Part shown: positions 6,812 through 52,724 of the stretch, in pieces
Layout of the letters: each line of letters opens with the position of its first letter
Position numbering within the stretch: the stretch's first letter is position 1
Assembly: GCA_965208675.1 (NCBI GenBank)
Contig: OZ242351.1
Location: 2,496,001 to 2,560,000 of the forward strand
Direction: 5' to 3'
Length of the DNA: 64,000 nucleotides
Source of the DNA: Candidatus Poribacteria bacterium
GTDB lineage: Bacteria; Poribacteria; WGA-4E; PCPOR2b
Translations under genes and position numbers: made by a program
Notes under the pieces: model-generated
What the model saw: only the letters and a program-made list of their open reading frames with translations
The model's database searches: none
Told to the model about the DNA's origin: nothing

Positions 6812-7009
6812 TTATACTTTTATACTTTGCTTAACCTCAGACACGTCATCAGTGTCAGAAATATAATCGTGGAACTTGCTCATCATTTCACGCAATGATT
6901 GAACTTTGCTCGCGACGCTACCCGTAACTCCATTTCTAATTTTTTCTGGCATTTCACCTTCTAGTAGCAAACTTACTAAGCTCTGATGGGAGGTCTTGAA
7001 TGGCATCAA
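6812..7009 (-). CDS. Small hypothetical protein
   Basis: 65-aa ORF co-oriented within the island. Confidence 0.3.
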   Translation of the reverse strand: MMPFKTSHQSLVSLLLEGEMPEKIRNGVTGSVASKVQSLREMMSKFHDYISDTDDVSEVKQSIKV

Positions 7010-7177
7010 TGAAATCCTGCTAAGTGAGAAAATCCTCCCGAGTCATCACTGTTTTGCCCTTTCTGCGTTTAAAGGCGCCACTTAGCCCATGTAGGATACC
7101 ATACATTATCGCCATTATACAAACAATTTCACCCACAAAAACAATTGTTTGTCAATTTAAAGATTAGAACTATACCA

Positions 7178-7391
7178 TTGACTTAACCAAAATTCCAATC
7201 TAAAATTAACACATCAGGAAAAAAGATGCCTTTATTTCTGAAAACCTAAATCGTATAAGTCGATAGTAGCAACTATCAGCTTCAAAAAGGCTGCTCTATA
7301 GACATTTTCTCCGAAATATAGCCAATTAATTGAGTGTTCATATCTGGTAAAATTCTCTTTACAGCCGAGAGCATGTGTTCTCGGCTTTTTT
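7178..7391 (+). ncRNA. Putative small antisense RNA unit 2
   Basis: TTGACT-N17-TAAAAT (7178-7206). Internal hairpin GATAGTAGCAACTATC. Terminator AGCCGAGAGCATGTGTTCTCGGCT+TTTTT (7363-7391). Confidence 0.45.
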
Positions 7392-7451
7392 ATTGCTCAT
7401 TCCACGGTGGTAAAGTGTATATCATTTTCAAAATAATACTCCATTCGATTT

Positions 7452-7718
7452 TCAAAATGGAACAACAGTGATTTTATCCGATAAGTCTATATCAGTCAAA
7501 CCACCAAGTTGCTCCACAACAGCTTTCCAAACCTCAGCTGCCTCATCATGTTTTGGCGTACTAAACAACTCAACCGGGGCATGTGGATAGTATACAATAA
7601 TTTTAGCTAGTTTGGATTGGTCTTTTGATGTTTCAATACGAAATTCAAGCTGATAAATCATATTCGGATTTAACACTTTTACCAAAGGCGGATTGTGAGA
7701 AAATACAATGCGAATCAC
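7452..7718 (-). CDS. Small hypothetical protein (phage-like)
   Basis: 88-aa ORF with GTG start and an AAGGAG RBS just upstream. Confidence 0.55.
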   Translation of the reverse strand: MIRIVFSHNPPLVKVLNPNMIYQLEFRIETSKDQSKLAKIIVYYPHAPVELFSTPKHDEAAEVWKAVVEQLGGLTDIDLSDKITVVPF

Positions 7719-7748
7719 TTAAATCTCCTTTCTAGTTAGCTTACGTTT

Positions 7749-8096
7749 TTATGTATGATAAAGGGGGTATACCCGAACATTAGGCATTTTTTTACCCATT
7801 ATCTTGCGCTCGCGGGATTTGTACACAAGAGACTTTTCTTTAGGAACTATAAATAGGGGAATATCGCCCAAGTCAAGCTCAAAGATTTTTCTGCACGTCT
7901 CCTCATCGTCTTTTACAACAATGGCATACTCCTCTGGTATGGAAATAACTGTGCCGTCGATAATTGGATGATTGCGGTCATACTCTACCCAATCAGTATC
8001 ATGAATCAACGACGCCGCAAATGTTGTGAAAATTCCACTTAGCTCGATCTCAACCTTTACTTCTTGCAACCCTTCTAAATCCTTAATGTGCGACAT
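7749..8096 (-). CDS. Hypothetical protein (phage-like)
   Basis: 115-aa ORF with GGAG RBS, in tandem with 7452-7718. Confidence 0.55.
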   Translation of the reverse strand: MSHIKDLEGLQEVKVEIELSGIFTTFAASLIHDTDWVEYDRNHPIIDGTVISIPEEYAIVVKDDEETCRKIFELDLGDIPLFIVPKEKSLVYKSRERKIMGKKMPNVRVYPLYHT

Positions 8097-40903: not shown

Positions 40904-43105
40904 ATGCATAGCATGCAAGCAGAATTGGACGATAAGGCACTTGTACAAAAAGCGAAACAAGGAGATTGCCGCGCTTTCGGGGAGTTGGTGCGATGTTACC
41001 AACATACTGTCATGCGAACCGCACGCTCGTTGACAAAAAACGAAGAAGCGGCGCAAGATGTCGCGCAAGAGGCGTTTGAAAGAGCATACAAGTATCTGGA
41101 TTGCTTCAAGCCAGAAAGGCCATTTGTCAACTGGCTGTTAACAATTACGAAAAATACCGCCAAGAGTTGGTTGGCACGGGAACACAAAGCGAACGGGAGA
41201 TTTGTGTCGTTGCAGGAGACGGGGGACGCCGTTTTAGATCAGCGGACATACGAGATCTACTCAGCTCAGACAATCCAACAACAGGTTCGAGAGGCGATTT
41301 CTGAACTTTCCCCCGCGAATCGAACGGTGGTTCACCTTTACTACATTTGCGGGTATTCCTATAAAGAGATAAGCCATCAGCTTGAGATTCCCACAAGCAC
41401 GGTTCGTAGTCGGCTTCAAGAATCCAGAAAGCAACTGAGAGAGGAGTTTGTTAGCATGGTGACTGCATTACGATTGCAAAAGACGTTGACTAAGAAGGAT
41501 GGTCTGATAGGCGATACAATCACCGCAATTTTTGAAGACAGCAAAGGAAATATGTGGTTCGGTACGACCAATGGGGTTAGCCGCTATGATGGCAAGGCCT
41601 TCCAGAATTTCACGCAGATCGATGGGTTAGCGTTGGATACCGTTGGCGCAATTCTTGAAGATAGCCGCGGTACGCTCTGGTTCGGCACGGGGCGGTGGAA
41701 CGTTGAGGGAAAGGGGGTCAGCCGCTATGACGGAAAGACCTTCCAAAATTTCACCACAGCGGACGGCCTAGCTGACAACACGGTAAAGGACATATTTGAG
41801 GATAAGGAGGGACACCTCTGGTTTGCGACACACGGCGGCGTGAGTCGTTACGATGGCCATAACTTTTACAACGTTAAGGACGGATTTGCACACAGCGCCG
41901 ATTGGAACTCTAACAACGGTGTTGATGCGATTGTGCAAGACGCTGATGGTAACCTCTGGTTTGGGGGCTACGGCGGCATCAGTTGTTACAATGGAGAGAT
42001 GTTTGAGTATCTCACAACCGATGATGGGCTGCAAAGCGGCTGGGTGACCGACCTTCTGTTCGATCAGCAGGGCAATCTCTGGATTACCCGCGCCGGCGGC
42101 GGAGGCTTGCTCGCATGCCTCGATATGAAGTTTAACCACCATATTGACCGTGGCAACCCAATATCAAAGGATATGCGGACTTCCATGGAAAAAAACGGCA
42201 TTGCCCTCTCACATAAGGCAAAGATCTGGTCGCAGGAAGAAGGCCGCAAAGGGCTAGTTCGGGATGGAAAGCTGTTCGATATTGAACCGAAATTCCAAAC
42301 GGAATTCGATAAAAATATCATTTCCGTCGAATTACGGGACGCTTTTGGAAGGAATGAATTTCCACTTTCTGATCCGGAGTTTCTTTTTCGCCTCGATCTG
42401 AAACGCCAGTGTGACTTAGACAGCAGTAATTCGTCATTCCCAAAAAACCTGCGGCAAGAGTTTGAAAAGAAACTCAAGCGCTCATTACTAAAGGATACGG
42501 AGATTTTAACCCAGGAGAGTGGTAGCCTATGGCTGATGACCGAGAGGGAAAACCATTCAAATGGGTGTTATGGCGGAGATACTTTCACCGTCAGAATAGA
42601 AAAGGAAAGGCTAAATGTCTACCGACAGAGCGTCTCCGTGCACCCAACGGCAGATGACCAATGGCGCATCAGTGACAACGGAGATCGAATCAACAATTGT
42701 CCCCGGCTCCGAGAATACTTTGTTGTCAAGGAACAGAATCGACTCGACGTATACCAAAATCAGTACGAGGTCATAAAAGGAAATAATCATCTATTAATCA
42801 TGGGGCGCGGCAGCGGGATTAGCCGGTACGATGGCAAAAACTTGGTGAATTTTCCGTCTCATGAGGGTATTCCGATGGATATAACCGAAAGCGTCACGCA
42901 GGACCGGAAAGGAAACCTTTGGTTTACAAGCCGTGACGGCGTCAGTGTCTATGACGGGAAAACTTTCCACAACTTTACGACAGGCGACGGCCTGCCGCAT
43001 AATAATGTGTCAGCGGTGCTTGAGGACAGACACGGCACGCTCTGGTTCGCCACGGACGGGGGTGTGGGTTTGGGCGTCTATGTGTCCGTCAACGACTCGA
43101 GATGA
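40904..43105 (+). CDS. ECF sigma factor fused to Reg_prop beta-propeller repeats with a nested-domain insert
   Basis: sigma2 (AQDVAQEAF, FVNWL) and sigma4 (SYKEIS..LEIPTSTVRSRL), then repeated I.ED..G.LWF.T..GVS.YDG blades. Confidence 0.88.
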   Translation: MHSMQAELDDKALVQKAKQGDCRAFGELVRCYQHTVMRTARSLTKNEEAAQDVAQEAFERAYKYLDCFKPERPFVNWLLTITKNTAKSWLAREHKANGRFVSLQETGDAVLDQRTYEIYSAQTIQQQVREAISELSPANRTVVHLYYICGYSYKEISHQLEIPTSTVRSRLQESRKQLREEFVSMVTALRLQKTLTKKDGLIGDTITAIFEDSKGNMWFGTTNGVSRYDGKAFQNFTQIDGLALDTVGAILEDSRGTLWFGTGRWNVEGKGVSRYDGKTFQNFTTADGLADNTVKDIFEDKEGHLWFATHGGVSRYDGHNFYNVKDGFAHSADWNSNNGVDAIVQDADGNLWFGGYGGISCYNGEMFEYLTTDDGLQSGWVTDLLFDQQGNLWITRAGGGGLLACLDMKFNHHIDRGNPISKDMRTSMEKNGIALSHKAKIWSQEEGRKGLVRDGKLFDIEPKFQTEFDKNIISVELRDAFGRNEFPLSDPEFLFRLDLKRQCDLDSSNSSFPKNLRQEFEKKLKRSLLKDTEILTQESGSLWLMTERENHSNGCYGGDTFTVRIEKERLNVYRQSVSVHPTADDQWRISDNGDRINNCPRLREYFVVKEQNRLDVYQNQYEVIKGNNHLLIMGRGSGISRYDGKNLVNFPSHEGIPMDITESVTQDRKGNLWFTSRDGVSVYDGKTFHNFTTGDGLPHNNVSAVLEDRHGTLWFATDGGVGLGVYVSVNDSR

Positions 43106-43231
43106 CTTTATACTACCAACACTAGGTTCTGTTGACATTTCAACGTAACCAGATAAGCGTGGAGACAAAACTCAGAAATCCAAGATAGCGGGCAGCGAGT
43201 TTCTCGAAACGAGAGAAGATACGACGGAATA

Positions 43232-43516
43232 GGGATTTTCCACCTGCTCAACGGGGACAAGAAACTTCCGACAGAAAAAGTGCCTGATGGCATCGATCCT
43301 GAAGCATGGAACAGTCAAGGAAGCGACGAACACCAGAAGGCACTTGACGCACTAACCACGGTCTGGGGTATATTGCCCGGTCAAACTGGACAAATTAAGT
43401 ACGATTTCAATCAGGGACAGCGTTTTAACCTGTGCGCTACTGGCGATCAATGGGGTGGTACAGAGACCATAAACGCTTTTCATGCTAAGATTTCTGTAAA
43501 AAGGAAATTGAAATGA
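43232..43516 (+). pseudogene. 3' relic of a SelN-like paralogue (accessory C-terminal domain only)
   Basis: GIFHLLNGD...WGILPGQTGQI.Y.F.QGQRF.L.ATG...INAFHAKISV matches the C-termini at 48232 and 49258. Its TGA overlaps the ATG at 43513. Confidence 0.7.
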
Positions 43517-44646
43517 GAACTTCACCAAACAAAATCAAGCTTAATCTCGACAGTAATGCAGAAGTTTCTGTTAAAGGCTTTATCGCTCCGATTGAATACA
43601 CGCAATACAACTTCCATGTTGATTGGGAGGCGTTGGCAAATCTACGGGTTGCTGAGCCAGAAAAGCAGCATTCTGCATCGGTTTTTCAATCTTTTCTGCC
43701 TCCAGAACCGGTTACGGTCGGTGAATGCTGGCAAATCGATGAAGCAGGCGCGCTGGAAATACTAAAACAACTTCACCCGAATCCGAGTTACGATAATGAT
43801 GGTGATTCTTATGGATTGTGGGCGTGTTTGCGCGCTTACAATGATGCGTTCGCTGAAATCGTGTTTCGCATCCATGCACAATTTGCTTTAAATGGCGGCT
43901 TGTTCACACCCTCGCAGTTTGCCGGGAGTCTAGTTGTCGACCGAATCGAAGATAGGGTTGCCCACTTCAAGATGCATGTACCCGAAGGCGTACTGAACTT
44001 CGATGTCTGCTGGGGCGAATATATCGACATCGGCTTTTGCCCGCAAATGGAACTGCATGCTGGGAGGCAAGACGTTGTATTCGGGGCTGAATTTGCTGAA
44101 GCCATCACCCAAGACGAAGCGGCGCACGTTCTAATACTGCGTTTCTACAAGTCCCAGCAAATTCATTGGGTATCGCTGGAAGAAGCGTTGAAAATGGCAC
44201 CGGTGCAACAGCAACCGATTCATGCCATTTCGATTGATGGGCCGCTGGCTGACGAGTCGTGCTGAGGGAGCGGCAAATGCCTGAGGGCAGGTGCTCTCTC
44301 ACACGACCGGGTCATCAAATTCTTGAACGAAAAATTCATCAACACTTGGGCAACAAATGCCGAATTAGGGCGTCATCGTAGCTTGCGAGACCCTATCGCT
44401 AAGAGACGCAAGCGCGAATCCAAGACGTTCGACACCTCCCACCCGTTGGCGCAAGCAATCTTGAAGGGCGGGGAGACAAGTTCACCGGTGGATTGTATGG
44501 TTATATCGCCCGACTTTGAACTGAAAGGGCAACTTCCGCTCAATGAATTCCTTGAGAACACCCGAAGTAAGGGCATTCGCCAAGAGGAGAGTTACCTAAC
44601 GTTTCTCGTGCAATCGTTAGAAGGGAAACAGCCGGGATTGGAGTAA
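43513..44646 (+). CDS. Selenoprotein N-like protein, copy 1 (Sec at TGA 44263-44265; 377 aa with read-through)
   Basis: ORFs 43513-44265 and 44323-44646 share a frame. Read-through gives GPLADESC-U-GSGKCLRAGALSHDRVIKFLNEKFINTW. Upstream FRIHAQF, FTPSQFAG and DIGFCPQMEL match SELENON. Confidence 0.88.
44266..44298 (+). promoter_or_regulatory. Putative bacterial SECIS hairpin (copy 1)
   Basis: Lower stem GGGAGC/GCUCUC, upper stem UGCC/GGCA, apical loop UGAG beginning after a 16-nt spacer from the UGA. Confidence 0.65.
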
Positions 44647-44695
44647 TTGCCAATACCGGCTTTGAGCGAACCTCGTGTGTGGTATAGGACAATTA

Positions 44696-44844
44696 CGGAC
44701 ACCCGCGACTGAACATCAGGATTACAACGTGCGCTAACGATTGGTATCCCAGCCGGCAACGCCAAGCGAGGAGGTTCTTTACGCTTGTACGATAGCGACA
44801 TCGGAATCGCCACAGGGAGCGGAGAACGTAGCTAAGACTCCTTT
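44696..44844 (+). pseudogene. Decayed C-terminal accessory domain of copy 1
   Basis: RTPATEHQDYNV and ALTIGIPAGNAKRGGSLRLYDSDIGIATGSGERS* align with RAPTPDCQDFTVV...TLAIDIRVGGAELRGSFYLYDTDVEIPTGRGERYY in 48767-49258. Confidence 0.65.
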
Positions 44845-45038
44845 ACACGCAGGTTTGCAGTACCGATTCAGTTGCATGAAGGGTAGTTACCAGGTAGGGA
44901 TTAGTAAGTCTAGATATGCCAATCCGGACCAGTCTTTCACCCTACACGTTTACACCCGCAATTGGAAAATTTTTTGGCTGAATAGTCAAATCAGATTTTG
45001 AGGAGTTCGGGTTTTGCCTTGCAATGCCCAAAATATAG

Positions 45039-46196
45039 ATGAAAACTTTCAAAAACAGAATCGCCGTCAATCTTGACGACACAGCAGAAGTGTCCGTGAA
45101 CGGTTTCATCGCGCCGGTTGAGTACTCTGCTGGAGATTTCCATAAGAGGTGGGACGCATTGGCGAATCTAAGGGGCGCTGAGCCAGAGATGCAGTATTCT
45201 GCGTCAGTATTTCGTGCGTTTCTCCCGTCGGGAGCGGTTTCGGTTGGTGAAGTCTGGCGTATTGAGGAAGCGGGGGCACTGGCGTTGTTGAGGCAACTTC
45301 ACCCTAATCCACATCTGGATTTGCACCATGATGCAGGAGACTCCTGTGGATTGTGGGCATGCCTGCGTGCATATAACAATGAACTTGCCCATGTTGTGTT
45401 CCGCATTCATGCAGAATTTGCGTTGACGGACGGCTGGTTCACACCCTCCCAATTTGCCGGGCATCTCGTTATCGATCGAAATGAAGACAAGATTGTGTTT
45501 TTCCAGATGCGCGTACCTGAAGGTATAATGAACTTCGATGCTAATTGGCAAACGACGGAAGAAGGATGGAGACCAGATACGATAATTACCGATACCGGCT
45601 TCTGCCCGCAAATGGAATTACGTGCCGGTATTGAACCCGGTGTGCAGAATCTTGAATTCATAGAAGCTATTACGGAAGAAGAAGCGGCGCACAAGCTGAT
45701 ACTGTGCTTTTACGAATCGGCGCAAATTCATTGGGTATCGCTGGAAGAAGCCTTGAAAACCGCAGCGGTGCAACAGAAGCCGATTCACGCCCTTTCCGTA
45801 GATGGGCCGCTGGCTGACGAGTCGTGCTGAGGCAGCGGCAAACTCCTGAGGGCAGTTGCTTTCTCACACGACCGGGTCATCAAATTCTTGAACGAGAATT
45901 TCATCAACACTTGGGCAACCAATGCCGAATTAGGGCGTAAACCGCAATTACGAGTTCCTATTGCCAAGAGACGCGAGCGCGAATCCAAGACCTTTGACAC
46001 AACGTCCCCCTTGGTACAAGCAATCATGAAGGGCTGGAAGAAAGATTCACCGGTGGATTGTTTGGTTATATCGCCCACCTTTGAACTGAAAGGGAAACTT
46101 CCACTCAATGAATTTACCAGCAACGCCTTGGATGGTGGGAGAACGGCGGCGGAAAACTACCGACTATTTCTAATGGAATCCTTAGAACCTGTTTGA
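45039..46196 (+). CDS. Selenoprotein N-like protein, copy 2 (Sec at TGA 45828-45830), cut after 46184 by a composite MITE insertion
   Basis: In-frame read-through GPLADESC-U-GSGKLLRAVAFSHDRVIKFLNENFINTW. The present stop codon lies inside the MITE end; the original 3' part is at 48767-49258. Confidence 0.87.
45831..45860 (+). promoter_or_regulatory. Putative bacterial SECIS hairpin (copy 2)
   Basis: Lower stem GGCAGC/GUUGCU, short CC/GG upper stem, UGAG loop at +17..+20. Confidence 0.55.
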
Positions 46197-46313
46197 AAAG
46201 TAACTGGCGGAGCCGTTGTTTGAATATTTGAGCGTCATAATCATCGGATTTTCAAGGCATTTACCCCAAAATGACATCGCCCGATGACGGATTTGGACTT
46301 TTCAAACAGGCTC
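46185..46313 (+). mobile_element. 129-bp MITE, left copy (IS5-family, IS1031-like ends)
   Basis: Terminal inverted repeats GAACCTGTTTGAAAAGT / ACTTTTCAAACAGGCTC; flanked by TTA and TAA; no transposase. Confidence 0.85.
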
Positions 46314-46693
46314 TAAAGCAATGCACGTATCTCTGAGAAATTTCTCGCTTAATCGCGTAATTTCCGTGAAAAGTGCATCCGAAACTGTGTTGCGGTAAAA
46401 GCTGCATAATAGTCTTCTCAACGGCATTTATACGGACAATACACGTTGCGCAAACATCCATGACAGCGAGAACAAAGATTACGCCGCCATCCATGCATTA
46501 ATCCCTCAATACATGGTTGCAGCGGTTTTTAAAATGTCGTATTATGCGTTAATGGTGACAAATGTCAACTGGTAATTGCTAACATCTACTATGGACAATG
46601 AAAATAGCAGGAAAATATCCGACGCGAGAGTTTCTGTGACCTGACGGTACCGCAAAAAGTTTGATGCAACCCACATTTCATTAGGAGAATTAA

Positions 46694-48232
46694 ATGAGAA
46701 TGGATTTAAATAACGTGCCTCAGTATTCGCGGAGCGTGCAGGTAGAAGCACACTGGGAACCGATTGCGGATTCTACATTTAATCTGCACAAAGAAATCCC
46801 AGAACACGCTGAGTTGTTCGATTTATCTCCAGACTACCCGTTCAAAAAATATGAGTCAGACGCTTTCAAAGCCTTCTTTCCCTCATCATCCGTAGCAGTG
46901 GGAGATGTATGGCAGCTTGATTCGGAGGGAGTTGTTCTGTTCCTTCGCCAATTCCACGCCGGAGCGACGACGAATCTACATCATGGCACGGAAGGTGCCT
47001 TTGCGTGCTTACGCGCCCTTTCGGCGGAATATGCGGAAATTACTTTCCGAATTCATGCGGATTTCGCGTTGTCGAGTATCGCTTATGAAGAATGGACGCG
47101 TGCGAACTCGATGAAAGAGGATGAAGGCAAAGCCCGATTTATTGCATCGCAATTCGCGGGAAAACTAGTCGTTAATCTGATGGATAGGACGGTTCAAGCG
47201 TTTTCACTAGCGTTGCCGCCCCGCAATAGCAACATTGACATCAACGCCTATGGTTGTGCCGATATGGTTTTTGTTCCGCGCATGCAACTCCTCGCCATCG
47301 GCGCCGATGACCATGGTGAAATTACGTGGGACGATTCCATCACTGAAGAAGAGGCGCGCAGGGCGATGGAGTTGAAATTCTATAAGTTCGCTGAGATCGA
47401 ATGGCGGCCGGTTGAAGAAGCGGTCGAACTTGCAAAAAAAACGCGCCGTCCGATCCATGCAATCCTTGTCTGGGGGGCACTGGACGACGAATCTTGCTGA
47501 GCGAACGGCAAACGATTGAGGGCGGGTCCGCTCTCCAATTCAGAAGTGATAAAGACGCTCAATGAGAAGTTTGTAAATACTTGGGTGTTCCTAAGAGAGT
47601 TGCCGGAACTAATACGCGGCGTTAGAGGGGAAGGTGCAAGCCGCGTCGCGGCAAAACTACAAAAACATTATTCCCATTCGGTTGATATATTGGCGCTGAC
47701 CTCAGAGGCAGAAGTGCTGGCGCATCATCCGGAGATGGCACTTCCCTACAGGAACAGGACACAAGCCTATTTAAGGCTGCTTAATCGTTCTCTAGAGGCT
47801 TTTGAAGCAAGGTATTTCTCAGAATTAGGAGCAAGGCCCATCAGTTTGGGGAAAAAACTCAAGGAGGTTTTGCATGTTTTTCGAGCATCCGAAACGCCGG
47901 ATTACACGATCGTTGACATTGACACAACCTCTTTTGAACACGACGGGATACTCTACATTGAGATACAGGTCGGTGGGGGCGAGGCGGCAGGGACGTTTGA
48001 ATTGTTCGATGGTGACACGGAACTTGTTACAGATGAATCTCCTGATGAAGCACTGGCTGGAGCGTGGAATGTCCCTCCCGGTGGAACAGGTCATATCATT
48101 CACAACTTCAAACGAGGGCAGCGTTTTAAGTTGAGGGCTAATGGGAGTAGGTCAAGCAAGGAGGGGTGCATCAACGCTTTTAGTGCGTATATTTCTGTCG
48201 TGCCGGAGTCTGAAGAATACGGGGAGTGGTGA
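46694..48232 (+). CDS. Selenoprotein N-like protein, copy 3 (Sec at TGA 47498-47500; 512 aa with read-through) with C-terminal accessory domain
   Basis: IHAILVWGALDDESC-U-ANGKRLRAGPLSNSEVIKTLNEKFVNTWVFLREL closely follows the animal SELENON core (LWGALDDQSC-U-GSGRTLR...LNESFISTW); AGGAG RBS. Confidence 0.9.
47499..47533 (+). promoter_or_regulatory. Putative bacterial SECIS hairpin (copy 3)
   Basis: Lower stem GAGCGAAC/GUCCGCUC (one mismatch), CG/CG upper stem, UGAG loop at +17..+20. Confidence 0.5.
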
Positions 48233-48239
48233 CGCTTAG

Positions 48240-48634
48240 CTAGACCTCAACACGGACAAAAGCGAGATACGCACCCGATACAAGAACAACGACAAACAGC
48301 GCTAACAACAGTAAATCTATCGCCGTGGCGTTGAAATCACGGCTGAGATTGAGTGTATCTTCAAACTTTGGATTCGACTCCGGACTGACGCGTTTCTGCG
48401 ACATTCCCTCGCCAACGCCTATGATATTAAGACTTTCCGGGTCAGCCCTATCCGTGTCAAGGACAAATTCGCGGAATTGGCGGGCGTAACCTTGGACATT
48501 TTCCAAGAATTGCAAATGGCGATTAAATCCGGTTGCCGCAAACGATTCCAGAAGGTGCTGGACAAGCACTACTGGGGAAACACGGGTTGTTGGGCGGTCG
48601 GTTAACGGAAATTTCACCGGCGGAATAGGTCTTA
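48240..48634 (-). pseudogene. 3' fragment of an ABC-transporter permease-like membrane protein, truncated by the MITE
   Basis: VSP...LLESFAATG..RH..FLEN and a terminal TM helix (LLLLALFVVVLVSGAYLAFVRVEV). The ORF's apparent N-terminus lies inside the MITE. Confidence 0.55.
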
Positions 48635-48763
48635 GAGCCTGTTTGAAAAGTCCAAATCCGTAATCGGGCGATGTCATTTTGGGGTAAATGCCTTGAAAAT
48701 CCGATGATTATGACGCTCAAATATTCAAACAACGGCTCCGCCAGTTACTTTTCAAACAGGTTC
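48635..48763 (-). mobile_element. 129-bp MITE, right copy (inverted)
   Basis: Reverse complement of 46185-46313 with one mismatch found by eye (CCGATGACGG vs CCGATTACGG); TTA on both sides. Confidence 0.85.
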
Positions 48764-48766
48764 TTA

Positions 48767-49258
48767 GAGGGGAAACGTCCCGGGTTGAGTCGAGATAATT
48801 CTTTCGGATATTTATTTGGCGAAGTAGATGATAGCGCCGTGGAACCGCTCTTAAGTGATTTAAACGTTGTCCTCAACAATGCGCAACCCTCGTTGGAAGT
48901 GTTGGATGTTTTTCGGGCTCCAACACCGGATTGTCAGGATTTCACTGTCGTAAAAATTGATGCCACGGCGTTTAAAACCGGTGGGACGCTAGCAATTGAT
49001 ATCCGAGTCGGCGGCGCCGAACTGAGAGGTTCTTTCTATTTATACGATACCGATGTTGAAATCCCTACAGGGCGCGGGGAGCGTTACTATCACTCGTTCG
49101 CCAATGCGACGGATATGCCTCCCAGGGGAGCAGCGCAAATCCAGTATCCTTTCTATCGACCTCAGGTGTTCAAGCTGGTAGTTGCCGCGGAGCCGGAAAA
49201 TGGGGACGGGAGTGTCAACGCCTTTCATGCGAGAATTTCTGTAGAGCAGGCAAATTGA
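48767..49258 (+). pseudogene. Displaced 3' part of SelN-like copy 2 (accessory domain)
   Basis: Joining 46184 to 48767 gives MESL-EGKRPGL, matching VQSL-EGKQPGL in copy 1; ends VNAFHARISV. Confidence 0.8.
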
Positions 49259-49892
49259 ACTTGCGAGACAGGTGGTTGAGTCATCCACCATTAAGTTACC
49301 TGATGTCGGGAAAAGTCTCCGGTTTTTGCGTGATTTTAGATACGGTGGAGATGAGCCACGGAGCGCGGATTTGGTACGTTTGCGGCGACCGTATTACACG
49401 CTTGATTGGTTTCTCTGAGGGCGGAGCAAGTGGATTCCCATTGCACCGTTCAACACCGGTAGCAGCGCATCGAAGAATGTCCACACCAGCGAACGGACAT
49501 CTGCGCTGACCGCGGTAAAATCTTTTGCAGCCTTGCTGATGCCGAACCAGTTCCAGAAAAAGAGTATGGCAGCGAACACGAACCCGTAGAACAGCGCGTT
49601 GGCTGCCGCAGGGCAGACGACGGCAGAAGGATCTCGAAATCGGTCAGAGGCGTAAGCGCACTTCCGCAATCGCCAATAGGAACCGAGTCTTTATTTACTA
49701 GTAAAGGGGATTGATTTAGCTGTTGCTTCTGTTACGACTTTATGGTTTCAGTATTGCACCAAATGTTGTGGTAGTTCGGCTTGCTACCCAATCGACTTCT
49801 TACCGGCATACGCAGCAGTTTAAATCAAAAACAGAGTATAGTCTGCAGCAGTCATTGGATGGGGCGAAGTAACTCCGTTTCTAAATGACCGA

Positions 49893-52246
49893 TCATTCTA
49901 CGCCGTTGAGTTCTGGCAGTTTATTCGCATCAATCGCCACACGGAAACCGGTAAAGGACTGGCGTACGTCGGACGGACTCAATCCATTTCTTACGATGCT
50001 GTAGACACGCGCATCCATGCAGCGTACGTCGTCCGTATAATCCCGCCATGAACTACCTCGCACGACTCTACCGCGCAAACCGTTGACGCCGATACCCCAG
50101 CCGTCAACCCATTCACGGACATTCCCAGCCATATCGAGGACGCCATAGGCACTCGCCCCTGCAGGCGCGCTGCCGACATTTCGTGTACCGAATTCCACCA
50201 TTTGGGTTTCAAACAACATACTGCCTCCCGGTTTCTGCTCAACAGTGTAGCCGCGAAACACTCCATATTTTCCCAATTCTGCTTCCACTTCTGCTTCAGT
50301 TCTCCTGCCACTTAGGGTTGCCTTCGGCAAATAATTGCCCCAAGGATACGTCCTTCCATCAGTTCCTCGCGCCGCTTTTTCCCATTCCAACTCCGTCGGA
50401 AGCCGAAAACCTGCCCGTTGGCAGAACGCTTTAGCGTCTGCATAGTTGACTCCAACGACCGGCTGACTTGGCGCGTTGTACAGTTCATTATCCCAAAAGA
50501 CAGGCGCGGGATACCCCTTTGCGTCGATAAACCGCTTGTATTGAACGTTTGTCAACTCGTATTTGGCGATGTAAAATTCTCCTGTGAGCCGTTTCTCGTT
50601 CAATTCTCCGTAGAGAAATTCCCCAGCGGGAACGTAGACTAATTCAATCCCTTTGTGCTGTGTCTCCCTAACTTTATGCGGTTTGAGGGCGCGATCATCA
50701 TATGGAATCTGTATCCCACGCTCGTAGTCTTCGATTGAATAACGGCGGTCATTTCGTCCATCATACACCCACGTATTCGACGGCAGATTCAGGCTACGAA
50801 CGTCGAACAGCTCCTTCGGTAGATTGGCATTAATCTGGAAGTCTTCAAACGTAATCCGGATTTCCTCAATAACGTCATCGGGTTGTTCGGAGAGTCGAAG
50901 CGTTTCAACAGCGGTGCGAGGAAACCAACTTCCATCGGCAAACTGGCGATAGGTTATATCTAAGGTAACAAAATTGTTACTATGGCGAGTCTCCAAGCGA
51001 CGAGGACGATAGCCTTGTTCAGGGTCAATCCAAAACCGGCGTTCGCTATGATCAGTGGTTTGGACAACGTAACACCAACTATCCCCAATCTTTTCGTGCC
51101 CGATTACGTCCGTGCCGTGATGCTTAATATACTCACCAATACGAACACGCCTGTTGCCGATATACAAGTTCATCCCCCACGTAAAGCGAATCCAACTGGC
51201 AAGCGATAAGGTATACTTAGGCTCATGATGATCCAAATTAACGCTCACGCCTTGGTTGGGCTCAAACAGAATGTCCTTTTCACCATCATAAATCTGCTGT
51301 TTGCTGATATGCGGTTCGCCTTGCCACTGTAAGATGTCGTCTTGCCGAAAACGATTCTTAGCGAACGCGAAAAAATATCGGTCTGGGGCAAGAAACTGAT
51401 TCTTGATAACCAAATAACCCATCCCATTTCTGATTTTCTCACCGTTTTTCCGAATCTCCGCGACAAGCTCACCAAGCGTCGGAAGTTCGTCAGCATCAAC
51501 TTGAAGCGGCGTCTTATCGTCCTGCGCAATGGCGCCACCAACCAAGTTGACATTCCGATAAGAATTCGGTTCTTGTGAGAATTGGTTGTCACCCGTACCG
51601 ATTCCCAAGCTGACCATACAGAGAATCGTCAACCCGGCAAGCGACATTGAAAGCGGGGCGCTCCAACTTGGCTTTGTCGAAGGTTGATGGGGTATTATCC
51701 CTTCCTGTTGGATGGATTTCAGCAAATCGAACGTGAAAGTCCCTTTGAGCCGGTGTTCAGGCTTTTTGCGCGCGCAGATGTACCGAAATACCGCCCTATC
51801 TCCTTGCACGTCAATCCGTGCATGTAATGCAGCGTCAAAACTTGTTGATCGCTCTCTGACAGCTCCGCAATTACACTCCGTACTGTGCGTTTCAGTTCAT
51901 CGTCCTGATAAGACTCCGCCGCCTTCTCTTCCAGCGCTTGGGGCCTTACCCTGTCAATCGGCACCTCATGTTTTGCGCTTCTCGACATGCGCCGCATCCT
52001 ATCGCGGCAACAGTTCACCGTAATAGTGTAAAGCCAGCCAGAGAAATTATAAGGTCGTCGAAACGCGCCCAAGTTTTGATAGGCTTTAAGAAAGACCTCC
52101 TGCGTTACGTCTTCGGCATCGGTGTGATTGCCAAGTTTGCGGCGGGCGATTCCGTATACGGCAGCTTTGTGGCGATCAACAAGAACACCGAAAGCGGTAT
52201 CGTCCCCCGCAAGGGATTCCCGGACAAGCATTTCATCTCGATTCAC
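49893..52246 (-). pseudogene. ECF sigma-TM-LolA-like-FGE-sulfatase (SUMF1) fusion gene broken by a frameshift/deletion near 51760-51790
   Basis: ECF sigma from GTG 52246 (GAGGAGG RBS; DAEDVTQEVF, LTCKEIG) loses its last helix. Another frame continues EHRLKGTFTFDLLKSI, then a TM helix, then RLPTELEWEKAARG, YGVLDMAGNVREW and TGFRV. Confidence 0.7.
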
Positions 52247-52724
52247 GTAAAGTCCTCCTCGCAATTCACGCGCTCTATCATATAAAACGCCAAAGAAGCG
52301 GCAATCCTCACACAAAAACTGCATCGGCGGAGCCTGTGCATAAAATATTACCATTTCTCCACAAGAATGTGACAATATTCTGTAAGGATAAATCATTGTG
52401 TCTGTTCAAGCAGTACACACGGGAAGGTGTCCCTAGAATGAACGCGTTATCTTCATACGAAAATGGTATAATGATTGTCTGATACGGGAGAACCTATTTT
52501 ACAGTTGTGGGTTTGTATCACACAAAACAATTACATGTCAGTACGGCGTTGACTATCCTGCACTAAAACTGGAATTGAGCAAACGTCAATATCGGGCGAT
52601 CGATAGAGAAGATGTCGCGCTCCTTGAGATAAGTGTTTCACATTGAGGTGCGCATAACGTTCAGTCGCACGGTACGCAATAGGCATACATTTTTTGGAAG
52701 GTTGATAAAAAGAGGAGATACGCT

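Follow-up and report, generated by a model that had tools for sequence, protein, structure and literature searches.

Selenoprotein N (SELENON, also SelN or SEPN1) is the product of a human myopathy gene. In animals its selenocysteine (Sec, U), which is encoded by UGA and lies in a Ser-Cys-Sec core, is inserted with the help of a Sec insertion sequence (SECIS) in the 3' untranslated region, whereas in bacterial genes a hairpin inside the open reading frame (ORF) and its recognition by SelB are to be expected: in Escherichia coli fdhF and similar genes, the UGA is closely followed by a stem-loop with a G in its loop, and decoding is by way of selA, selB, selC and selD. Animal SELENON is presented, in titles found in PMC7474598, as a calcium sensor of the endoplasmic reticulum tied to redox activity, and as involved in the redox regulation of SERCA2; in the accessible parts of two further papers, the family is recorded from the sponge Amphimedon and other invertebrates (PMC3473315) and is included among algal selenoprotein families (PMC7539508).

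We have analysed a 64,000-nucleotide stretch of DNA from a sponge-associated Candidatus Poribacteria bacterium (GenBank assembly GCA_965208675.1, contig OZ242351.1, positions 2,496,001 to 2,560,000, forward strand; 'the window' in what follows), in which three ORFs run into in-frame TGA codons. An original prediction, made from the letters and ORFs of the window, had taken these for a tandem array of three SELENON-like genes. It is very probable, on the evidence set out below, that all three (copies 1-3) are bacterial members of the SELENON family in which the in-frame UGA is decoded as Sec. The SELENON family and the Sec decoding system are kinds of thing already known; what is new is how large and widespread the bacterial branch is, together with the conserved SECIS and the domain architectures of its members and the mobile setting of one of the genes.

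A Poribacteria homologue of SelN is said to have been mentioned by a SelN research group. In the searchable open literature we found no report of a bacterial SELENON (supplementary family tables could list one). Neither SELENON nor Poribacteria is mentioned in the accessible text of two selenoproteome reviews (PMC13188914 and PMC9312934) or of the BSepDB paper (PMC13326102), the last of which does not mention Planctomycetes either, and the strings 'bacteri' and 'homolog' are absent from the accessible text of PMC7474598.

Three reading frames that continue past an in-frame UGA

The reading frames are as follows, in window coordinates.

43513-44265, + strand: ORF of copy 1 up to the TGA, 250 aa, ending ...DESC
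44263-44265, + strand: in-frame TGA of copy 1, U251 in SC-U-GSGKC
43513-44646, + strand: copy 1, SELENON-like gene read with TGA=U, 377 aa, with N-terminal and thioredoxin-like domains and without the C-terminal domain
45039-45830, + strand: ORF of copy 2 up to the TGA, 263 aa, ending ...DESC
45828-45830, + strand: in-frame TGA of copy 2, U264 in SC-U-GSGKL
45039-46196, + strand: copy 2, SELENON-like gene read with TGA=U, 385 aa, cut by an insert after the thioredoxin-like domain
46694-47500, + strand: ORF of copy 3 up to the TGA, 268 aa, ending ...DESC
47498-47500, + strand: in-frame TGA of copy 3, U269 in SC-U-ANGKR
46694-48232, + strand: copy 3, SELENON-like gene read with TGA=U, 512 aa, with N-terminal and thioredoxin-like domains and a C-terminal beta-sandwich; cargo of the insert

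The ORF list for the + strand contains the three frames predicted to end in DESC-TGA at 44263, 45828 and 47498, and when TGA is translated as U each frame does, as had been claimed, run on into a conserved segment, VIKxLNE(K/N)F(I/V)NTW, with only one U in each protein. The variation noted earlier around the active site (SCUGSGKC, SCUGSGKL and SCUANGKR) is also seen in these translations, which read DESC-U-GSGKCLRAG in copy 1, DESC-U-GSGKLLRAV in copy 2 and DDESC-U-ANGKRLRAG in copy 3. The first start codons 3' of the TGAs are TTG codons at 44323 (copy 1), 45888 (copy 2) and 47516 (copy 3), so the 19, 19 and 5 conserved codons that follow the respective TGAs cannot come from separately initiated ORFs. 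Copies 1 and 2 are about 65% identical to each other, and copy 3 is about 35% identical to both.

Evidence that UGA encodes selenocysteine

The window is part of a 4.89-Mb contig (96.4% complete, 1.14% contamination), and a search of the genome for selA, selB, selD and tRNA-Sec, as suggested with the original prediction, found the full Sec machinery on that one contig. The genes selA (526.9 bits) and selB, neither of which has internal stops, form a minus-strand cluster (G000 C1:2131405-2134655) with the gene for tRNA-Sec (anticodon tca, 2131405-2131498), which directly adjoins selB. The product of selD (C1:4649539-4650462; 375.8 bits) is itself of the Sec type, its gene having an in-frame TGA in the context VKCAG-U-ASKLDPGDL. 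Elsewhere in the genome UGA is an ordinary stop, closing 404 of the 1217 stop-to-stop frames of at least 400 codons.

The codon has been kept with great constancy among relatives. A scan of one genome per species, using the pattern LFG[TAS]LDDES, gave 46 confirmed loci, of which 15 were from Planctomycetota (Pirellulaceae, Fimbriiglobus and others), 29 from Candidatus Poribacteria and two from organisms labelled 'uncultured bacterium'; the Sec codon was TGA in 46/46, and was followed by at least 94 open codons. Likewise, TGA was present in 65/65 sites recognised across 80 metagenome loci (the pattern recognised no site in 17 of the 80). TAA or TAG at this position, which would have spoken for an ordinary stop, thus occurred in none of the 46 genome loci or 65 metagenome sites, and retention of TGA at all of them means that continuation of the frame past it is not due to chance. 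In a phylum-wide search, all but three of the 150 matches listed had one in-frame TGA, and orthologues of copy 3 (60-81% identical) have one apiece.

Homologues with TGC in place of TGA had been anticipated, and they exist: four full-length proteins encoded by single ORFs (P0111, P0113, P0122 and P0131) read SC-C-GSGK at this point and a fifth (P0132) reads AC-C-ATGK. Judged from the aligned sequences, the pattern is the classic one of Sec/Cys alternation. Members of the Cys clade are rare (16 proteins, all metagenomic), and in the locus scan none of 62 matches to the Cys pattern DESCCGSG was confirmed.

A conserved hairpin downstream of the UGA

Bacterial SECIS elements are stem-loops situated 16-37 nt 3' of the UGA, with a G in the apical loop. 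Each of the three copies has a candidate (energies are for a 25-nt piece).

44283-44298, + strand: putative SECIS hairpin of copy 1, GAGGGC / loop AGGU / GCUCUC, -8.6 kcal/mol
45848-45863, + strand: putative SECIS hairpin of copy 2, GAGGGC / loop AGUU / GCUUUC, -6.1 kcal/mol
47518-47535, + strand: putative SECIS hairpin of copy 3, GAGGGCG / loop GGUC / CGCUCUC, -10.6 kcal/mol

The family hairpin (consensus GAGRGCR, loop GGUC, YGCUCUC) is 18 nt long and occupies positions 21-38 after the UGA, its stem beginning 21 nt from the U of UGA; in the three copies the start at 21 nt and the G-bearing loops GGUC, AGGU or AGUU agree with the description just given. Among 86 distinct sequences, 93.9% of cells in the alignment pair, compared with 36-73% when the partner strand is slid, and four of the seven pairs vary on both sides. 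With metagenome loci added (141 distinct sequences), 93.8% of 987 cells pair, against 38-74% with a slid partner, and none of 500 shuffled controls matched the observed pairing, double-change cells or covariation score. Changes on both sides were then found at five of seven pairs, in 60 cells, mostly from G-C to A-U at the closing pair, although this figure must be discounted somewhat, as most pair changes are inherited by whole clades and the cells count sequences rather than independent events. The clearest instances are a C-G to U-A switch at one pair in L038, L053 and L057, and replacement of the closing G-C by A-U throughout the clade reading DDQSC that is described below (GCG GGT CCG becoming GCA GGT CTG).

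Codon choice tells a similar story. Third codon positions have a mean entropy of 0.67 bits inside the hairpin (six sites) and 1.40 bits outside it (ten sites); the loop Gly codon is GGT in 78/78 of those rows (among the 86) that encode Gly there, whereas all four Gly codons occur at a Gly position five codons upstream; and the hairpin Arg codon is AGA or AGG in 82/86 rows, GC-rich Planctomycetota included. We read this hairpin as a putative, family-specific bacterial SECIS. It resembles the element of E. coli fdhF in its place, its loop G and the genes at hand for decoding, and differs in belonging to another protein family, in being short (6-7 bp with a tetraloop) and in being unusually constant across phyla. 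This near-invariance makes it a search pattern for further members.

Several observations count against such a reading, besides the clade-wise inheritance just mentioned. The same nucleotides encode a conserved peptide, LRAGPLS, and constraint on the protein thus accounts for part of the hairpin's conservation. Copies 1 and 2 have only a 6-bp form, which requires a shifted register, and two Planctomycetota loci with CGT at the Arg codon (L060 and L061) lack the family hairpin and have another at a similar distance. Folds of 70 nt are not unusually stable (z of -1.84, +1.02 and -1.39 for copies 1, 2 and 3), and Rfam gave no match in 43000-50000, it being uncertain whether Rfam has a bacterial SECIS model.

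Homology to animal selenoprotein N

A phmmer search with copy 2 against 1.84 billion representative proteins (clusters at 50% identity) gave 389 matches at E<=1e-3, 259 at E<=1e-10 and 47 at E<=1e-30. Most of the matches end with query residue 263, which is the Cys preceding U, gene callers having truncated the proteins at that point, just as the original prediction had supposed for genes of this kind. Three animal proteins are among the matches, at E 1e-18 to 1e-20: P0252, from the wombat (UniRef), P0239, from the mollusc Nucella (NCBI), and P0229. The nearest relatives of P0252, at 66-67% identity, come from many vertebrates and are named 'Selenoprotein N' (UniRef, NCBI).

By BLASTP, copy 3 is 29% identical to P0252 over 248 columns (E 3e-31) and copy 2 is 28% identical to it over 242 columns (E 1e-26). 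The alignment of copy 3 extends from a FRIHA(D/E)F block, across the Sec site, to LNEKF(V/I)(N/S)TW, so the claim that similarity to SELENON spans the U position holds good; U itself aligns with the animal ...DDQSC site, where animal database entries drop the residue or end. The blocks FRIHAEF, (T/S)P(A/S)QF.G, P.MEL and LN..F..TW are common to the bacterial and animal proteins, as are a homologous N-terminal domain, a thioredoxin-like domain and the Ser-Cys-Sec core. On these alignments the three genes are true homologues of animal selenoprotein N.

There are differences. The bacterial copies share only 28-29% identity with the animal protein, and some bacterial members have an extra C-terminal beta-sandwich; copy 3 reads SCUA, where the animal protein, like copies 1 and 2, has SCUG. 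Nothing in the alignments of copies 1-3 corresponds to the first 150-200 residues of P0252; the copies lack not only the transmembrane anchor, as had been noted before, but also the EF-hand. Anchor and EF-hand are features of the animal branch, not part of the shared core.

None of the four proteins searched against Pfam matched a family at E<=1, thioredoxin models included, and NCBIfam had no model above cut-off and the PDB no sequence match for them. These blanks say only that no curated model covers the family. With almost all family entries cut at the UGA, and no Pfam or NCBIfam model, the selenoproteomes of Poribacteria and Planctomycetota are under-counted.

Predicted structure and a possible mechanism

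AlphaFold2 (AF2) models, built with 45-48 aligned homologues, had a predicted local distance difference test score (pLDDT) of 93.4 and a predicted template modelling score (pTM) of 0.90 for copy 1, and of 89.8 and 0.79 for copy 3. The N-terminal domain of about 215 residues (residues 1-215, for example 43513-44157 in copy 1) is modelled as beta-rich and is common to animal SELENON. In a Foldseek search with copy 1 it had no confident match in the PDB (non-thioredoxin matches had probabilities of at most 0.14), and may represent a fold not yet solved.

The second domain is, in the models, a thioredoxin-like fold with the Cys-Sec pair at the N-terminus of its first helix: DSSP assigns to copy 1 a strand at 236-241, then U251, a helix at 252-259 and strands at 276-281, 326-331 and 337-342. 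The best Foldseek matches of copy 1 in the PDB were a DsbH-domain protein (7tkv), DsbH (2ju5), ERp19 (1sen), AGR3 (3ph9), AGR2 (9i3u) and DsbD-gamma (1uc7), mostly with probability 1.0 and a target-normalised TM-score (TMt) of about 0.5-0.58; DsbD-gamma was weaker (probability 0.85, TMt 0.42), and the TMt of 7tkv was only 0.14 because the target chain has 642 residues. The order of strands and helix and these matches agree with the thioredoxin fold that had been proposed, as a prediction. In DsbH, ERp18-19 (TXNDC12), AGR2-AGR3 and DsbD-gamma, the redox motif is likewise found where helix 1 begins, after strand 1, and the C-terminal half of copy 1 superposes on them over 124-147 columns; they differ in having CxxC in place of an adjacent Cys-Sec, in being only 10-18% identical, and in lacking the large N-terminal domain to which the SELENON-like proteins are fused.

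The C-terminal domain of copy 3 (residues 387-504) is predicted to be a beta-sandwich like those of pre-peptidase C-terminal, collagen-binding and GOLD domains (TMt 0.59-0.70). A Foldseek search with the whole model of copy 3 gave local matches only, those with TMt of about 0.5-0.7 being to beta-sandwich domains and apparently owed to the C-terminal domain. Matches to pesticidal and binary-toxin chains were long, poorly superposed alignments (root-mean-square deviation >20), and we do not read them as kinship. When the copies were compared with the PDB as searched, no chain resembled them by sequence or as a whole fold.

What we say here of Sec insertion, redox chemistry, substrate and cell compartment, and below of the arrival of an insert, is what we infer from these sequences and models. 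SelB carrying Sec-tRNA(Sec) would bind the mRNA hairpin 21-38 nt downstream of the UGA, and Sec would be inserted directly after the conserved Cys. The product would consist of the beta-rich N-terminal domain and the thioredoxin-like domain, with a beta-sandwich added in copy 3 and in an intact paralogue of copy 2 located elsewhere in the genome. The Cys-Sec pair would take the position that CxxC has in thioredoxin-fold enzymes and would be expected to alternate between a selenol/thiol and a selenenylsulfide form, the protein acting, by analogy, as a thiol-selenol oxidoreductase. The adjacent Cys-Sec pairs of other selenoenzymes supply the analogy for such a selenenylsulfide redox cycle.

Distribution, phylogeny and origin

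The family had been thought otherwise mainly animal, and this proved wrong. The 389 phmmer clusters are mostly bacterial-looking, and a search of the phylum found a match at E<=1e-10 in 131 of 176 genomes (110/112 in family f4, 10/11 in f2, 10/28 in f1 and none in the other eight families); the family is also present in Planctomycetota and in soil and marine metagenomes. Such breadth argues that SELENON was not an animal invention, and the view of it as an invention of animals or eukaryotes needs revision.

Two trees were made. A FastTree analysis of 118 rows included 82 of the 149 listed proteins P0107-P0255 (those of at least 230 aa that end in the pre-Sec motif) together with eight full-length forms; a quick IQ-TREE analysis (LG+G4) had 50 rows, 16 of 20 chosen metagenome loci having passed its length filter. 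In both, one group comprised the six animal rows and bacterial-looking sequences reading ...DDQSC-U-PSGTDLRAGLLS, and the other all Poribacteria and Planctomycetota, reading ...DDESC-U-. The split had a support of 100 in FastTree and 97 in the Shimodaira-Hasegawa-like approximate likelihood ratio test (SH-aLRT) of IQ-TREE, and both trees placed copy 3 in a different clade from copies 1 and 2. The DDQSC clade looks bacterial: its contigs have a GC content of 0.52-0.71, many of its proteins have lipoprotein-type or signal-type N-termini, and its genes have the same in-ORF hairpin.

It had been proposed that a phylogeny with sponge and other animal sequences might show the direction of transfer. 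In the best tree the animals stand apart from the Poribacteria, which does not favour a transfer between the two. In approximately unbiased (AU) tests, for which the groups were named after the tree had been seen and in which the animal stem is long (about 1.0), grouping of animals with all Poribacteria had p 0.032, while neither the grouping of animals with the copy-3 clade (p 0.31) nor that of all Poribacteria as one clade (p 0.07) was rejected. Exchange between sponge symbionts and animals therefore has no positive support from the trees, which are nevertheless compatible with it. More tentatively, and with rather less than an even chance of being right, SELENON may go back to a large family of bacterial Cys-Sec oxidoreductases, mostly exported and equipped with a SECIS of its own, the animal protein being derived from the bacterial 'DDQSC-U-PSGT' lineage of soil and marine metagenomes, and members of the family, natural Cys forms and fusions to ECF sigma factors among them, being tractable models for SELENON chemistry and structure and perhaps redox sensors wired to transcription. 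The bacterial branch in any case offers many simple proteins on which structural and enzymological work could be done; their genes have no introns, they have no membrane anchor, and some of them naturally have Cys in place of Sec.

Other ways of reading the locus

The TGAs could be real stops, in which case the genes would be pseudogenes, or the N-terminal domain and a small thioredoxin-like protein would be made from separate genes. Gene callers do annotate them so, the 82 representatives kept for the larger tree have as their last residue the very Cys that precedes the TGA, and fragments such as P0136 and P0141 begin at an internal Met beyond it; yet there is no start codon between the TGA and the conserved peptide downstream, the frame and the exact codon are kept across phyla at every one of the 46 and 65 sites, the full-length Cys versions are single ORFs, animal SELENON is one chain across the site, and the AF2 model of copy 1 would pack both halves as one protein. 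We consider real stops very unlikely. Much the same low probability attaches to the idea that UGA is read here by other means, whether by near-cognate Trp, Cys or Gly insertion or through a recoded genetic code. A genome in which UGA closes so many long frames, leaving selA and selB uninterrupted, and which has a dedicated tRNA-Sec and the full pathway, gives little room for it; the site moreover aligns with animal Sec and with the Cys of relatives, and is followed by a conserved hairpin at SECIS distance. Natural variants with TGG (L036 and P0108) or GGA (P0006) at the codon are what such a reading has in its favour.

That sponge DNA, through faulty binning or recent transfer, is the source of these genes in the bacterial assembly is scarcely credible, even though DNA of the locus is found in sponge metagenomes, SelN is present in sponges (Amphimedon, in the accessible part of PMC3473315) and the AU test retains a grouping of animals with the copy-3 clade. 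The genes are intron-less, have the in-ORF hairpin seen in bacteria, and are flanked by bacterial ECF sigma and FGE-sulfatase genes on a long contig with little contamination; homologues are found in most of the phylum's genomes searched; and identity to the animal proteins is low, the best tree joining animals with a different bacterial clade (SH-aLRT 97).

Decoding of UGA as Sec in copies 1-3 is thus the reading that we prefer, and three further points speak against it, or against its applying to every gene. The TGG and GGA variants mean that not every copy need be a working selenoprotein; their frames are otherwise intact, and loss of activity in the copy, a sequencing error or a non-redox role may account for them. 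Copy 2, severed from its C-terminal domain, may be in the course of decay. Finally, copies 1-3 have no signal peptide, whereas many relatives have one. As a separate observation, L036 (G025:C1:2214800-2216200) has a close relative, L045, that retains TGA.

An insert between IS-derived repeats

Around and between the copies are the following features.

43160-43513, + strand: C-terminal beta-sandwich, candidate remnant of a lost copy; BLASTP against P0108 residues 448-521, 34%, E 1e-16
46181-46316, no strand assigned: left arm of a 136-nt inverted repeat, 99% complementary to 48632-48767
48632-48767, no strand assigned: right arm, in the opposite orientation; element like a miniature inverted-repeat transposable element (MITE)
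48240-48677, - strand: 145-aa ORF in the insert, starting inside the right arm; weak, partial match to Pfam DUF3526 (E 1.2e-6, residues 33-72)
48671-49258, + strand: orphan ORF, residues 32-195 corresponding to the linker and C-terminal domain that copy 2 has lost

Besides copies 1-3, the genome has two further loci of the family, namely an intact paralogue of copy 2 (546 aa; G000 C1:3422180-3423814) and a copy-3-type gene at 903737-906159, which makes five in all. Residues 1-383 of copy 2 are 92% identical to the intact paralogue, and residues 32-195 of the orphan ORF are 90% identical to the part of it that comes directly after (tblastn). By blastn, window positions 44997-46187 correspond to 3422138-3423328 and window positions 48763-49285 to 3423322-3423844. 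Both outer flanks being contiguous in the paralogue, the 2.58-kb segment with copy 3 is an interruption of copy 2 within the linker that leads to its C-terminal domain. The last codons and stop of copy 2 are supplied by the repeat arm, from which residues 1-31 of the orphan ORF also come (100% match to the minus strand of 46185-46277).

The arms are MITE-like, each with its own terminal inverted repeats of about 20 nt, and at least seven further copies of the 136-nt element, 74-83% identical, are present in the genome. The element shares its terminal repeats with a 0.89-kb insertion sequence (IS) encoding a DDE_Tnp_1/DUF4096 (IS4/IS5-type) transposase, which interrupts the copy-3-type gene at C1:904905-905795 (L104 about 6905-7796), between residues about 393 and 390. 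TTA is present at both outer ends of the insert, and also flanks four of the other copies of the element that were inspected. The near-identical inverted ends, the TTA at the outer ends and a known uninterrupted target are those of a composite IS5/MITE segment; it is like IS5-family IS and their MITE derivatives in its terminal repeats and TTA flanks, and differs from them in that 2.3 kb of cargo, including a selenoprotein gene, is enclosed by a pair of inverted MITE copies. The 145-aa ORF in the cargo is probably a gene fragment.

The simplest reading of the junctions is that copy 3 was inserted en bloc between two IS-derived repeats. Copies 1 and 2 would be diverged tandem duplicates, and copy 3, from another subfamily, would have come with the 2.58-kb segment into a TTA in the linker of copy 2, parting off the C-terminal domain. 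The locus thus seems to provide a case of a selenoprotein gene as cargo between IS-derived repeats. Of the tandem array originally described, the number of copies stands, and the simple triplication does not. There had also been a suggestion of four or more original paralogues: the orphan ORF at 48671-49258 is no sign of a fourth, being the displaced C-terminal domain of copy 2, and it is the region at 43160-43513, which is matched also by residues 430-502 of P0003 (tblastn) and contains an ORF (43280-43516) overlapping the ATG of copy 1, that points to a further, lost copy.

In three of four sets of read-derived contigs (runs X1, X6 and X7) there were joints that skip 2582 nt (46180 to 48763, or 46187 to 48770), which at the 90% likeness used may stem from the 91-93% identical paralogue at 3.42 Mb and are not counted as an empty site. 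Read-derived contigs break around the repeated region after each TGA, and positions 46714-47561 are also covered, with a single difference, by a contig from an independent study. Among the sequencing runs listed for the locus there was none of RNA. The copy-3 orthologue is present alone in two genomes of the same genus (81% identical in one comparison, 71-72% in the other), without the repeat or the window neighbours within about 9 kb.

Arrays, fusions and neighbouring genes

In at least four loci from family f4 genomes (L019, L022, L024 and L028), a copy-1-type gene is directly upstream of a copy-3-type gene, and on a 349-kb metagenome contig (L175) three Sec sites follow one another on the same strand at intervals of about 1.5 kb. 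SELENON-like genes therefore form arrays elsewhere too.

Two metagenomic proteins, P0111 (668 aa) and P0216 (576 aa), combine an extracytoplasmic function (ECF) sigma factor (Sigma70_r2, r4), a hydrophobic segment and a SELENON-like domain. In the window, a gene for an ECF-sigma/Reg_prop fusion (40904-43105) has copy 1 about 400 bp downstream, and a second ECF sigma gene (51719-52396) lies 2.5 kb beyond the array. These fusions and neighbours may indicate that the family is connected with redox sensing. Close to the array on its downstream side, and on the - strand, is a gene (49893-51809) for a 638-aa protein with a C-terminal FGE-sulfatase (SUMF1-like) domain.

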